Source of the DNA: Chrysomallon squamiferum
Taxonomy: Eukaryota; Animalia; Mollusca
Assembly: GCA_012295275.1 (NCBI GenBank)
Contig: CM022668.1
Coordinates: 4,464,001 to 4,528,000 of the forward strand
Direction of reading: 5' to 3'
Length of the DNA: 64,000 bases
Numbering within the stretch: the first letter of the stretch is position 1; each line of letters opens with the position of its first letter. The position numbers were made by a program, and so were the translations under genes. This document shows, in pieces, positions 21,318 to 34,657 of this stretch. Below the pieces are notes generated by a model, which had not been told where the DNA came from, ran no database searches, and worked only from the letters and a program-made list of their open reading frames with translations.

Positions 21318-24300
21318 TCACGGCTGTAATAAGAGTAGAAAAAATGGGATTAGAAAACAAAATTAGATACTGTCAACCATGTTTGTACTTTGCTACTAAA
21401 TTCTAATAAATATGACAGGTAATCTTGAAAGAATTTACATAATTTACAGTATACTGTTAAAAACAAAATAACAAAGTATTTTTATGAAAGTAAAATATTG
21501 TAAGAGGCAAAACTAATAATTCCTCTCCTTGAAATAAATAAATAAATTTATAAAGTTAGGCGGACGTGAAAGGAAACACCAATAATCTCCAATGAATTAA
21601 CAAGAAGTTACCAAGCAGCACAGTTCAGATGCATCCTCGCACACGTAGCCTACAGCTTCAATGCCATTAGCGACGCTACACATTGCTGATGACATGCATA
21701 CGGAGTCTTCATCTGAATGATCCGCACAGGCTAAAAAGAAAATTAAAAAGAAAAAATGAAAAAATCAAAACAAAGAAAATAATTAAAATAGAGTTCTTTT
21801 CTCTTTTTCTCTCTCTCTCTTTCTTTACCACTCTCTCCCTCGGTCTCTCTGCAACTCTCTCTGTTTCTCTCTCAGTCATTCTCTTTCTTTCTCTCTTTTT
21901 TCTCTGTAACTCTCTCTCTGTCTCTATCTGTGTTTGTCTTACTGTTCTCTCTGTTTCTGTCTGAGTCTTTTTCTCTGTCTCTGTCACTTAAACACACAAA
22001 AGCACACAGAAACATTGTTTTATTCGTAATTTGTCATTCTGCTTTTGTGAATATATGAATGTATGTATATATGTGCATTTCTGGCTACCTGCAGTGTTTA
22101 TATAAATCTAAAGTAAGTAATTCTCAAAAATATACTTACCAGCTGATAGAGACAGATGACAACAGAGAGAGGACAAGAAAGACAAAATAAGAAACAGAAG
22201 AAGGGATAGAAAAACAGAGCAAGAAAAAACAAACAACAAGAGAGACAGAACAAGAGACAAGAAATACAAGAGAGTGGAGCAAGGAACAGAACAATTCAGA
22301 AAAAGAAGATAACGAATGAAAGAGAACATCTGAGAGAGAGATAGAGAGAGAGAGACAGAGAGAAATAGACAGAGAGAGAGATAGACAGAGAGAGAGACAC
22401 ACACAAACAGAGAGAGAGAGAGAGAGTGTGTGTGTGTGTGTGTGTGTGTGTGTGTTTCGGGAGGAATTATTCAATATTTTTTCTCTCATTTGAAATAAAA
22501 CAGGTATAATGTGTAAGAGAGAACTGTTTACGGATAATATTGTACGTATGTATGTTTGGGTAAGAGTATGTGTCTGTGTGCAAGCACCGATCTACATATC
22601 TTGACATGCTTTCTGTATTTCTTTATCAAAAAACTAAATTAAGAAAAGATGTTTAATATCTTACGTTTCAGAGGAGCTTCGGAGAGAAACAAAAAAGAAA
22701 CAAAACAAAATTATTTTAATACATCAGGTAGGGAAAAGACGAATATTTTTAATGTATGTATGTTTCTATGTATGTATATTAGTATATATGTATGTATGTA
22801 TGTGTGTATGTATGTAGGTATTATGAATGGCTGTATGGATGAATGTATATAAGTATACAAATTTAAAACTATAAACGAAATGCTTCTTGAATTTATTCAG
22901 ATGACCTTCCAGAACAATACTGTATATTTCTAAACATGTTTAATATTATTATTTAGAAGAAATCCTTTCTCAAAATATGCGAAGAAATACAAAGCATCTA
23001 AGATTTCACGAAAAACATTCTTAAACAAAAGATATCCTCTGAAAACATTTTAAAACATTTCTGTAATTTTTACTGAATTCACTCGTAAATCCTTCGAGAA
23101 CAGGTATGGTGCCAAATAATGAAAATAAATATCTGACATATCTAACTGGATTTTTGTTTGCTTTGTTTGAAATCAACACAAACACAAAAAATTTCGGCTG
23201 AAACATTTACACGTAAATCTGTTGATGTATTTCTCATTAAAATTCAAAGATGTTATCGTTATCCTTAATTCAAATTATTCTATAATACTTTCAGATGGTC
23301 TTTCTCTATTTGAGTATTCTTCATGTGTTCTCTAAAGACAATACATATGGACGCGTCGATTTTTATATTTCTGAATATCGAATCCGCATCAAAGGTAACT
23401 GAAAGGGAGTTTTGTGGTGTTCTTGTTAAATAAAATATCATCTGTATTTGGAATAAAACTTTCGTATCTGTTTCCAAATGTGTGGATAGATGCTTATATG
23501 TACTAGTTATGTATATTAGTGAATGTGTGTTTGTGTCAATGTATTATCATTAATGTGCGTTCTGTATCAGATATATCTCGATGTAGTTCATGTATTTCTT
23601 AATACAGAAAACAAATTATAATAAATAACTTTTTATATCTTACCAGCTTCAGAGAGAAATAAAGAAAAAATACAAAAAGTAATCATATTAATACATCAGG
23701 TAGAAAAAAAGAAGAATATTATTAATGTACATACGTACGTAAGTATGTATCTAAATGTATACATAGTGTGGATATGTATGTAAATATGTGTATGTATGCG
23801 TAAGAGATAGACAGAGAGTAACAGAGACTTATAATGAAACATGGACAGTTAAATACACAACGAGAGAGATGATGAAAGACAGAGAGAAAGAGATTGATAT
23901 ATAGGTAGAGAGACAGATAGATAAACAGAAACATTGATACAGAGATATACACAGAGACAGTTGTAATTTTTACTTACGTAGTGCTTCGCAATCGTCCAGC
24001 TGTTTTTTCAGACAGTCAATTTTCACCAGCATCTTTTCAATTCTGAAAGATAAAAACAGCTTCATAATGTAAAAAATATTTTATGTTAAATGTGTCAGTT
24101 ATTGTTTCTGAGGAAAGAAAACAACTTGTGCAATTCACATTATTTTACTTTAGGAAAAGCTTAGATTAGAAACAACTTTTAAAGTGTATCTGTTTTATTT
24201 CGTTTCCTTTTTATTTATTAACTGATTTCTTTATTTATTTACTTATTTATTTATTAATTTGTTTGTTTCTTTGTCTGTTTGTTTCCTTGTTTTATTTATT

Positions 24301-24543
24301 CATTTATTTGTTACTTCTTTCTTTGTGTTTTATTATTATTATAATTGCTGATGTTGTTAGCATTATTATTCTTGATTTCGTTGTTTTTACTATTATTATT
24401 ATTATAAAGACAAAATAAGTTACTTACTTCTGACTACAGCTTTCATCCGATTCCTCATGTCCCCACCCCCAGTGTTCAAGGTGTGACTCTGCTACACTCA
24501 GACATGTTACAACCAACACGCAAATAATCAGAGAAGATTTCAT
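21318..24543 (-). CDS. Copy D, intact (MKS-type N-terminus)
   Basis: Exons 24543-24428, 24042-23978, 23646-23644 (3 nt), 22676-22665, 22142-22140 (3 nt), 21730-21612, 21323-21318. Protein MKSSLIICVLVVTCLSVAESHLEHWGWGHEESDESCSQKIEKMLVKIDCLKKQLDDCEALPAPLKPACADHSDEDSVCMSSAMCSVANGIEAVGYVCEDASELCCLP*. Confidence 0.85.
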
Positions 24544-24660
24544 TTTCAGTTTTTTCTGCTTCTTGTACTCAGGACTTTGTCGAACGATGTGAGCTGTGGA
24601 AATGCGAGACGTACTGATATTTGTTTCTTTTGTCAACGTGTACAGTGGAAAATTACACTC

Positions 24661-32030: not shown

Positions 32031-33230
32031 TGCATAACGCAGAAATTTGAAGACACTTCTTCTTACACTTTAATAACTCTACATTATTCATATGGCTGAA
32101 TTTAAGTATGAGCTGAAAAATCTACTCCAAGCTTAGAAACTCGCATCCTGTAAGAGCCTGTAAGATTTCAGTTTAGTTATCACACAATTTTATTCTCTGT
32201 TAATGCTCAAGAAATTGGGTCTATAAAGATTTCAGTAGTTTAGGGCATCGCCGAGTTTATAACTCACACTAACTGTTTTCTCTGTTCTCTAAATCCTGTT
32301 TGAAAATAATTTACTAAAATATACTGCGTGCAGTTGCTCGTAATTACATGACTGTGTGTTGTTTTCTATATATAAATGTCAAAATAAATAATTTTAACAC
32401 TACTCTAATTTTCTATAATTTCTTCGTGTTATGGAAAAAAGGAAAAAAAAACACAAAAAAAAAAAAAAAAACCCGATAAGAAAAGCCACGATACACAATG
32501 TAAGACTGTTATATACTGGAAATACTTAGGATGATGATAATCGAGAAAAACGTCAGGCCTACTAAAACACTGCCAGACTATTCCGAACTAACACAACCAG
32601 CTCTGTCCCAGTGTCAACAGGACGAATCAACAGAGAAGAATGGTAATATTTTTACCGAGACTCGTACTGGCTAATTTTGCAATGAGTGACAGCTGTCAAA
32701 ACGGAAGAATCCCAAAATAGGAAAATGCGTTTAATGGATGTTCCTTTCACAGGACGGTGGACAGTGCCTCGTTTTTATTTTGTGACACGAGATCCGTCTT
32801 CTCTAGATTTTTGGTTTTTGGAAACATTTGTATCGTAACAAGAGCAAAGGACATTTACCATTCATGTTACATGAATGTAAAAACAAAATAATGAAAATTT
32901 GGGAATCCTCGTGAAAAAGACAGAAGACTTTTCTAGAAATCGCCATTTCAGTAACATTGACCATTTGGACATTTGAATAATGGCGGACACTAACATTTGT
33001 GAGATTTAACAAATGTAAATGCTAATGTTGTTTCTATTGTTCTTACTACTACATTCCGCTACAATTAACTCTAATACCACTACTATAGAAAATAAGTAAA
33101 TAAATAAATTAATTAATTTATTAACTTGAAAAGAATAAAGATAAAGAATAATGATACTTTCAAGCTTTTATTTCTTACTAATAAGACTGTGTTTCCTTTC
33201 TCAAGTTTTTCTCCTGACTTTTCACCTATG

Positions 33231-34657
33231 TTACAGCTGAAATAAGAGAAGAAAAAAATGGGATTAGAAAACATAACTAGATACTGTCAACCATGTTTGT
33301 ACTTTGCCACTTAAGTCTAATAAATATGACAGATAATCTTGAAAGAATTTACACAATTTACAATATACTGTTACAATATATTGGAACAGACAAAACTAAT
33401 AATTCCTCTCATTCAAATAAACAAATAAATTTAAAAAGTTAGGCGGACGTGAAAGGAAACACCAGCATTCTCCAATGAATTAACATGAAGTTACCGAGCA
33501 GCACTCGAAAAATGAAATAGGGCACAGGTAGCCTTGAGCTATAATTCCACCAGCGTCGTCACAGAATCCTGGTGGACTGCATCCGGTGTCTTCATCTGGA
33601 TGATCCACACAGACTAAAAGTAAATTAGAAAGAAAAAAAAAAAGAAAAGAAAAGAAAATCATTAAAATAGAGTTATTTTCTCTCTTTCTCTAATTCTCTT
33701 TCTTTACCACTCTCTCCCTCGGTCTCTCTGCCACTCTCTCTATTTCTTTACCACTCTCTCCCTCGGTCTCTCTGCCACTCTGTCTATTTCTCTCTCAGTC
33801 ATTCTCTTTCTTTGTCTCTCTATTTCTCTGTGACTCTCTCTGTGTCTCTATCTGTGTTTGTCTTACTGTTCTCTCTGTTTCTGTCTGTCTCTCGTTTTCT
33901 CTGTCTCTGTGTCACTTAAACACACAAAAGCACACAGAAACATTGTTGTATTCGTAATTTGTCACTCTGCTTTTGTGAATATATGAATGTATATGCATGT
34001 ATGTGCATTTCTCAGTACCCGCAGTGTTTATATATATCTTAAGTAAGTAATTCTCAAAAATATACTTACCAGCTGAGAGAGACAGATGACAACAGAGACA
34101 GGACAAGAAAGACAAAATAAGAAACAAAAGAAGAGATAGAAAAACAGAGTTAGAAAAAAGAAACAACAAGAGAGACAGAACAAGAGACTAGAAATACAAG
34201 AGAGTGGAGCAAATAAAGAACAATTCAGAAGAAGAAGAAAACGAATGAAAGAGAACATCTGAGAGAGAGATAGAGAGAGAGAAACAGAGAGAGAGAGAGA
34301 GAGAGAGAGAGAGAGAGAGAGAGAGAGAGAGAGAGAGAGAGAGAGAGAGAGAGAGAGACACAGAGAGAGAGAGAGAGAGAGAGAGAGAGAGAGAGAGAGA
34401 GAGAGAGAGAGAGAGAGAGTGTGTGTGTGTTTGTGTTTCGGGAGGAATTATTCAATACTTTTTCTATCATTTGAATTAAAAGAGGTATAATGTGTAAGAG
34501 AGAACTGTTTACGGATAATATTGTACGTATGTATGTTTGGGTAAGAGTATGTGTCTGTGTGCAAGCACCGATCTACATATCTTGACATGCTTTCTGTATT
34601 TCTTTATCAAAAAACTAAATTAAGAAAATATGTTTAATATCTTACGTTCCAGAGGAG
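33231..34657 (-). pseudogene. Copy F, 5'-truncated (linker micro-exons, head and last exon only)
   Basis: Exons 34657-34646, 34072-34070, 33613-33495 (VCVDHPDEDTGCSPPGFCDDAGGIIAQGYLCPISFFECCS) and 33236-33231 (L*). Homology to D/E intron 2 ends at ~35393, and exons 1-2 are absent. Confidence 0.75.

Follow-up and report, generated by a model that had tools for sequence, protein, structure and literature searches.

Probable positive selection and gene conversion in a tandem cluster of six-cysteine genes of Chrysomallon squamiferum

Introduction

How can one exon of a small gene change quickly while the exons before it stand still? The question is raised by a 64,000-nucleotide stretch of the mollusc Chrysomallon squamiferum (GenBank assembly GCA_012295275.1, contig CM022668.1, positions 4,464,001 to 4,528,000, forward strand; hereafter the window, in whose own numbering positions are given), where neighbouring gene copies named D, E and F carry an exon for a six-cysteine domain, here called the head. 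A first-pass annotation had read the variable heads as a sign of positive selection, with gene conversion of the 5′ exons as the alternative. Our analysis indicates that the D, E and F heads are likely under positive selection, borne mostly by the D and F branches, and that gene conversion, offered as a substitute for selection, is instead a real second process that co-occurs with it. We regard this combination of positive selection with conversion or shuffling as highly probable. The value of the locus lies in its architecture and in mechanics visible within one 64-kb window, a search of 1.84 billion representative proteins having turned up no homologue; if confirmed, it would provide a compact test case for how selection, conversion and microsatellite-bounded exchange divide their roles among the exons of one small gene.

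Results and Discussion

A putative family of about ten tandem copies

The window has a GC content of 29%, abundant microsatellites, GT-AG introns and a single gap of 200 N at 20023–20222. A six-frame scan located the pattern C-x9-C-x5-C-x11/12-C-x6-CC in eight exons, and the exon scan together with a scan for microexons yielded six intact models (B, D, E, G, H and I; 107–127 amino acids) and another four copies that are broken or cut off (A, C, F and J). The models were read from sequence alone, by AG/GT ends and open frames, and the copies were lettered A to J; on these grounds the window appears to be a tandem cluster of about ten copies of one unannotated gene family. Each model comprises a signal-like exon 1 (the signal peptide was recognised by its pattern rather than by a predictor), an exon 2 of 65 nucleotides (nt), a series of microexons, the head exon (117–120 nt) and a last exon with a near-immediate stop codon, which falls 1–3 residues past the head in all six models. 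Intact models have two to eight phase-1 microexons of 3–15 nt each, which encode a stalk of 8–33 residues, and in the open models all microexons and head exons begin in phase 1. TATAAA was present upstream of the gene in 4/4 copies examined, and AATAAA 55–64 nt into the last exon in 8/8 copies examined.

Searches of three RNA runs returned short spurious matches or none, which carries no information on expression. In a further run, X1, which may derive from the source sample, a contig across the D head differed from the window at 2 of 178 bases, one of them, at 21683, changing a Met codon to Val when read from the sequence, and another contig ran into the E head. Both heads thus exist in run X1, and the divergence of D between this run and the window is far below that between D and E.

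Replacement changes in the D, E and F heads exceed local divergence

As first described, D and E are identical in the coding part of exon 1 (0/116 bases differ) and show only synonymous changes in exon 2 (2/65), while their heads differ at 15 of 39 residues (62% identical) with all six Cys fixed. The six Cys are in fact invariant in all eight heads of the window, as are one His and one Tyr, with 39 columns variable. The F head is more divergent again, differing from D at 21 and from E at 19 of 38 codons. Two parts of the earlier description had to be revised. F has no exons 1 and 2, so the comparison of 5′ exons is limited to D and E, and the introns are not nearly identical. With microsatellites and gap edges masked, the D/E introns differ, from 5′ to 3′, at 20/353 (5.7%), 7/192 (3.6%) and 9/662 (1.4%) positions (the latter two being parts of intron 2), 15/399 (3.8%), and 41/362 (11.3%) and 19/259 (7.3%) in the introns flanking the head, a gradient that is highest beside the head. 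Non-coding divergence totals 257/4224 (6.1%), with 6.2% in the 3′ flank, and the head exon differs at 21 of 119 nt (17.6%).

We then compared the proportions of replacement and silent differences (pN and pS), obtained by counting with a kappa of 2, with divergence in the two introns beside the head. Flanking introns differed at 60/621 (0.097), 49/599 (0.082) and 49/618 (0.079) positions for D/E, D/F and E/F, respectively, and head pS was indistinguishable from these values (0.08, 0.06 and 0.12; P = 1.0, 1.0 and 0.30). Head pN (0.21, 0.38 and 0.29) was higher than the introns in each pair (Fisher P = 0.003, 1e-11 and 4e-7), and the direct comparison of pN with pS gave P = 0.065, 0.001 and 0.074. 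A dN/dS at or below 1 with heads no more divergent than their flanking introns, the pattern expected if the proposal of selection were wrong, is therefore not what these exons display.

Codon models, run in our own implementation and not in codeml on three sequences of 38 codons, pointed in the same direction. For D, E and F together, M0 gave an omega of 5.1 and 7.4 (likelihood-ratio test, LRT, P = 0.0015 and 0.00015) and M2a fitted better than M1a (P = 0.0003 and 4e-7); between the D and F heads, dS was 0.06–0.07 and dN 0.50–0.53. Pairwise LRTs were significant for D/F (P = 0.0008) and E/F (P = 0.031). In simulations with base-specific intron rates, 7.9 amino acid changes were expected against 21 observed for D/F (0/4000 simulations) and 7.8 against 19 for E/F (P = 0.0005), and with clustered changes counted once both pairs retained P = 0.009. 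Extending the set to seven heads, with H omitted as a near-copy of B, M2a was still preferred (P = 0.045). Among mutational causes, CpG hypermutation was rejected, as CpG-type transitions account for only 3 of 39 variable columns, and GC-rich mutability was found by base-composition correction to account for part of the divergence only.

Several observations weigh against this reading, the main caveats being the truncation of F and the clustering of changes. The D/E pair alone is marginal, at P = 0.03–0.075 over the tests (LRT P = 0.075 at an omega of 3.4; composition-corrected P = 0.048, with 9.1 changes expected and 14 observed; clustered-event P = 0.064), the G/I head omega is 1.1 (P = 0.89), and the site test on five heads without D and F gives P = 0.33. 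Support for positive selection is thus strong in the pairs that include F and marginal for D/E alone. For G/I, pN exceeds the downstream intron (P = 0.006–0.013) but not both introns pooled (P = 0.13), making G/I a weak independent replicate of head selection. The 34 differences between the D and F heads group into 16 clusters, and single-step codon models overestimate omega where several bases change at once. F, the source of the strongest signal, has no exons 1–2 and may be dead. Finally, the 157 bases before the ATG (24544–24700 in D, 30359–30515 in E) diverge as much as the D/E head, with 29 differences (18.5%); next to an identical exon 1, this possibly marks a conversion edge or fast promoter or untranslated region (UTR) change.

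These caveats can be assembled into an account without adaptation, in which D and F are decaying and an omega above 1 is mimicked by clusters of multi-base changes in their heads or by short stretches converted from unseen paralogs. Besides the missing exons of F, the clustering and the loss of significance without D and F, it can draw on the head exon of 119 nt that D and F share (starts 21612 and 33495), one base shorter than in E (27806), B and H; this length shifts the reading frame of the last exon and costs both copies the aromatic residue that follows CC. Relaxed evolution should, however, bring omega near 1 and raise dS, unlike the D–F values given above. The six Cys, the His and the Tyr are kept despite 39 variable columns, the F pairs still exceed the introns when each cluster is counted once (P = 0.004–0.009), and D retains its splice ends, TATA box and polyadenylation signal. 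We thus give decay only a slim chance.

In the same region, the last stalk microexon of G (38839) and the first of F (34657) are both in phase 1 on the same strand, about 4.2 kb apart, and the F head could in principle serve as an alternative 3′ end of G.

Conversion and module exchange probably operate alongside selection

Between D and E, a run of 284 identical non-coding columns stands out against the 6.1% background, as does a window of 600 columns with only seven differences; neither was reached in 2000 permutations. The paralogs B, G, H and I show a mosaic. B and G differ by 1–2% over promoter, exon 1 and intron 1 and by 36–51% from the pre-head intron onward, whereas B and H differ by 0–2% in the 3′ module and by 4–10% in the 5′ half. 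Exon 2 is identical across all four, yet the B/H and G/I heads differ at 38–41% of bases. Informative sites grouped B with G and H with I in three 5′ segments (60 sites), and B with H and G with I in two 3′ segments (183 sites), with none conflicting; one shared stalk segment detracts from this picture by being mixed, with three BG|HI and three BI|GH sites. A (CT)n tract directly precedes the type-specific 3′ module in each of G, I, B and H, and such tracts also separate stalk units, which suggests that head modules may have been exchanged at (CT)n tracts.

Conversion alone, with heads changing at a normal rate and looking fast since the 5′ exons and introns were homogenised, would account for the two D/E stretches and, through the near-identity of the B and G 5′ halves beside their divergent heads and 3′ introns, for the contrast between B/H and G/I heads. 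In D, E and F, however, silent sites of the head and the adjacent introns diverge by 6–12% and replacement sites by 21–38%, and a head dN far above the local dS and introns is not something that homogenising the 5′ end can produce; as a sole cause we find it hardly credible. Nor is conversion needed for the identity of the D and E 5′ exons, for which it had been proposed. In exons 1–2, dS (2/37) is at the level of the introns and dN (0/143) below it (P = 0.0016), a pattern for which purifying selection is enough, and it explains the identity equally well.

The count of copies depends on the assembly. Positions 9925–20022, left of the N gap, are 96–97% alike to 39033–47493 in the right arm, in inverted orientation, and the left contig (1–20022) may be a recent inverted duplication or an uncollapsed second haplotype. 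The latter would reduce the number of copies, as A, B and C lie on this contig, and so counts against a ten-copy cluster. The conflict among G, H and I lies within one contig, and the 5′/3′ mosaicism therefore survives the second-haplotype reading. A further rearrangement junction is seen at 17446, between B and C, where the segment restarts within an A-type 3′ UTR.

A candidate zipper and stalk precede an acidic head

In both D and B, the segment that runs from the final Cys of exon 1 to that of exon 2 has a hydrophobic residue or Cys at each of its seven a/d heptad positions, and Cys caps both ends (shuffle P = 0.016–0.017). Positions b, c, e, f and g are charged, and the start is rich in His and Trp. 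We infer a disulphide-capped coiled coil, or zipper. A dimer prediction for exon 2, read through into the intron, scored 0.13 and 0.12 with the mark at 0.32, and is evidence neither way. Just past the likely signal cleavage site, exon 1 of D, E, B and A encodes a conserved His with W-G-W or W-W-G; depending on the cut, the product could presumably begin with a metal-binding Xaa-Xaa-His.

The stalk has a Pro plus Thr content of 33–67% and contains a dibasic pair in none of the six models. A single Lys occurs near the head only in D, G and I, and in the upstream part of the B and H stalks; in E and B, the residues immediately ahead of the head include no basic one. All eight heads are acidic (net charge −4 to −8), with Lys and Arg absent from those of D, E, F, B and H, and the mature proteins have net charges of −4 to −13.

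AlphaFold models of the E and B heads reached a predicted local distance difference test (pLDDT) score of 93 and 88, with a strand-helix-strand-strand order; both were built from the same seven heads and are hence not independent. In a fold search against 48,161 chains, named defensins made up 13 of 17 (E) and 10 of 14 (B) matches at Z of at least 2, the others in each list being three cnidarian peptides (Ueq 12-1, Hact-4 and helianthamide) and one unrelated chain. The best match was platypus DLP-1, with 35 aligned residues in both cases (Z 3.9 at a root-mean-square deviation of 1.8; Z 3.2 at 2.3). Two results speak against the assignment: the Z-scores, at most 3.9, are under the reliable range of the tool, and Foldseek returned nothing at an E-value of 0.001 or lower for either head model. 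With these, the predicted beta-defensin-like fold is a consistent lead and no proof.

Sequence searches were made with single exons of about 40 residues as queries, which limits their sensitivity. None of the eight heads matched a Pfam defensin family at E-values up to 1, the sole match being CLIP_1 in one head (E = 0.96). Six exon pieces, including unspliced exons 1 and 2 of D and B, matched no Pfam family at E-values up to 10, and the heads matched nothing in PDB up to the same value. A profile search of the representative proteins gave four matches at E-values of 0.001 or lower, a TPR protein and three multi-repeat bacterial-lipoprotein-like proteins, one of them named Deltaproteobacteria, which we rejected as sums of weak Cys-spacing matches. 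Exon 1 and the heads (the latter at longer and at near lengths) gave nothing in word-based searches, which is weak evidence, and an Atlas search gave no usable match for E and one nameless lead (0.76) for B. Taken together, the searches suggest a lineage-specific family.

The lipoprotein-like proteins P0002, P0003 and P0004 carry repeated C-x4/5-C...C-x5/6-CC units on Asp/Thr linkers, with no Pfam match on the repeats; these may represent a domain not yet described, whose likeness to the heads is probably a matter of convergence.

Relation to known cysteine-rich families

Big defensins combine an N-terminal module, a variable linker and a C-terminal six-Cys domain ending in CC, the latter on its own exon behind a phase-1 intron; their charge ranges from anionic to cationic and the N-terminal domain drives assembly (PMC7203481). 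Here, too, a phase-1 intron directly precedes the six-Cys exon, a feature also of beta-defensins, but the N-terminus is a Cys-capped heptad segment instead of a conserved hydrophobic domain, the linker comes from microexons, the Cys spacing is longer, and there is no Pfam or profile match. The best reading of this analogy is that the family may work like big defensins without belonging to them, since the N-terminal domain and the profile match fail.

Vertebrate beta-defensins are clustered duplicates with positive selection on the mature-peptide exon soon after duplication (PMC1156880). The predicted fold is alike, whereas the heads here are strongly acidic, sit on zipper and stalk and have no sequence match; the cationic, membrane-active surface of antimicrobial defensins is absent from all eight. 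In conotoxin superfamilies, rates contrast between exons, introns are rich in microsatellites, and recombination joining a mature exon to another leader has been proposed (PMC3862624). As in their precursors, D, E and F combine a conserved leader with a hypervariable exon for a Cys framework that is likely under positive selection, but the present genes lack a basic pro-peptide cleavage site, have an extra zipper and microexon stalk and match no conotoxin family. The likeness to conotoxins drawn in the first-pass annotation is therefore limited to the evolutionary pattern, there being no dibasic site before the head, and the likeness to defensins gains a weak fold prediction.

Mytilus MgCRP-I is a lineage-restricted family with a conserved pre-pro region, a hypervariable six-Cys mature part, positive selection, pseudogenes and no known function (PMC4558851); it has the array C-C-CC-C-C, a dibasic site and usually a positive charge, against C-C-C-C-CC, no dibasic site and a negative charge here. 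The sea urchin SpTransformer genes (Sp185/333) form a tight cluster of duplicated segments bounded by microsatellites, which are proposed to promote duplication and conversion (PMC3091723). That protein is unrelated, and the (CT)n tracts here are intronic, which means that exchange at them would shuffle whole stalk units and head modules. Schistosome micro-exon genes have secreted products, recent duplications and a high dN/dS (PMC4350168), but microexons here form the stalk only, and the fast part is a normal exon of 117–120 nt. Among the fold matches, helianthamide appeared at Z 2.0–2.2, and a beta-defensin-like anemone mucus peptide is a pure enzyme inhibitor (PMC6835510).

The exon-wise evolutionary pattern is thus already known, whereas the architecture looks new; no description of the combination was found in the open-access literature. 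Clip domains have C1-x9-C2-x5-C3 spacing and a terminal CC, with a C3–C4 distance longer than in these heads. No protease domain is attached here, the CLIP_1 match is not significant, and clip-domain chains were absent from the fold match lists, which excludes nothing.

What the proteins may do

We tentatively favour, at somewhat less than even confidence, the view that these proteins serve host defence as multivalent binders whose microbial or parasite protein targets keep changing. The protein would be secreted and oligomerise through its conserved zipper, displaying heads that stay tethered on a flexible stalk, possibly O-glycosylated given its Thr content. Binding or inhibition of foreign proteins by the heads would set up an arms race that drives head change, with the zipper held constant. 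Their acidity argues against membrane lysis, and a fast-changing target, as originally proposed, would fit the head. It tells against this view that the results do not separate defence from venom or reproductive roles. If confirmed, it would extend trans-defensin folds to a new oligomeric format.

A role as venom or defensive-secretion peptides would make leader and zipper a pro-region and direct the head at prey or predator receptors, channels or enzymes, which would account for the conotoxin-like pattern. The platypus venom defensin-like peptides and cnidarian peptides among the top fold matches suit it. Against it, none of the six models has a dibasic site separating the zipper from the head, the Cys framework matches no Pfam toxin family, and a stalk whose length varies by exon gain would better fit a head that remains attached; we consider this role unlikely.

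Small secreted Cys-rich reproductive proteins often change fast adaptively, and acidic heads suit protein–protein recognition, so the heads might instead be reproductive or chemical-signalling ligands (gamete coat, seminal fluid or pheromone) co-evolving with conspecific receptors. Our analysis gave no positive evidence for this, and copy turnover with broken A, C, F and J fits arms-race families generally, not this one specifically, which leaves such ligands improbable. Still less can be said for a structural matrix (adhesive, mucus or mineral-binding), in which acidic heads and His-rich ends bind metal and the zipper cross-links. The acidic mature proteins, the conserved His and Trp near the N-terminus and the invariant head His agree with it, but neither ion binding nor cross-linking explains why most non-Cys head positions should be under positive selection, and we judge it very unlikely.

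More ambitious, and quite doubtful, is a germline combinatorial binder system, in which identical disulphide-capped zippers would bring chains with different heads together in one multivalent molecule. Heads would pass from leader to leader, and microexon stalk units be gained or lost, by exchange at intronic (CT)n tracts; microexon skipping would tune reach, and positive selection would diversify the defensin-fold heads. If true, it would amount to antibody-like diversification from a defensin fold in an invertebrate.

Coordinates and further features of the cluster

Positions of the gene parts are collected in Table 1.

Table 1. Parts of copies D, E and F and of the remaining paralogs, in window positions
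Feature	Positions	Strand	Remarks
D exon 1, coding	24428..24543	-	Signal-peptide-like leader, His/Trp-rich stretch, first putative zipper Cys
D exon 2	23978..24042	-	65 nt; heptad segment, Cys at end
D microexon, 3 nt	23644..23646	-	Phase 1; within 410-bp segment absent from E
D/E identical non-coding run	22782..23090	-	284 aligned columns; likely conversion tract (permutation)
D microexon, 12 nt	22665..22676	-	
D microexon, 3 nt	22140..22142	-	
D head exon	21612..21730	-	119 nt; C-x9-C-x5-C-x12-C-x6-CC; net charge -8
D last exon, acceptor to AATAAA	21254..21323	-	Stop within two codons
E exon 1, coding	30243..30358	-	Identical to D
E exon 2	29786..29850	-	Two synonymous differences from D
E microexon, 12 nt	28894..28905	-	
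E microexon, 3 nt	28323..28325	-	
E head exon	27806..27925	-	120 nt; net charge -7; modelled at pLDDT 93
E last exon, acceptor to AATAAA	27449..27518	-	
F 5′ junction	35390..35531	.	D intron-2 similarity stops at 35393; exons 1-2 absent
F microexon, 12 nt	34646..34657	-	
F microexon, 3 nt	34070..34072	-	
F head exon	33495..33613	-	119 nt; most divergent of D, E and F
F last exon, acceptor to AATAAA	33167..33236	-	
Paralog A	4963..9910	+	Exon 1 without donor at shared position; head 9516-9632
Paralog B	11791..15812	+	Exon 1 11791-11891; exon 2 13280-13344; four microexons; last exon 15801
Paralog B head	15337-15456	+	Type 1
Paralog C	19327..20022	+	Exon 1 only; cut by 200-N gap
Paralog G	37755..41630	-	B-like 5′ half; three microexons; head 38183-38299, type 2
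Paralog H	45190..49119	-	I-like 5′ half; four microexons; head 45547-45666, type 1
Paralog I	51305..56504	-	Eight microexons; 33-residue Pro/Thr stalk; head 51692-51808, type 2
Paralog J	58590..59141	-	Pseudogene; D-like exon 1 with premature stop

The 5′ junction of F abuts an inverted copy (97%) of the D upstream flank 25892–26033. In A, donors are degraded after one microexon and after the head, which makes it likely a pseudogene, and in J the start of exon 2 is joined to an A-type last intron and exon. The H head differs from that of B by one residue.

Microexons vary in their own right. In copy I (52264–54981), a block of about 1.2 kb with three microexons is tandemly repeated, giving eight microexons. 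Five microexons (14090–14104, 39306–39320, 46885–46899, 53083–53097 and 54244–54258) have paired acceptors three bases apart and so read as 12 or 15 nt, through which splicing might vary the protein by one residue, and at 38640–38700 a 9-nt microexon of G is partly duplicated together with its acceptor but lacks a donor there.

Upstream of D, E and J lie tandem arrays of a unit of about 30 bp in variable copy number (25900–26200, 31450–32030, 59810–60650 and 61740–62150), and a unit of about 120–150 bp repeated two to three times (24700–25100, 30450–30700 and 59240–59480).

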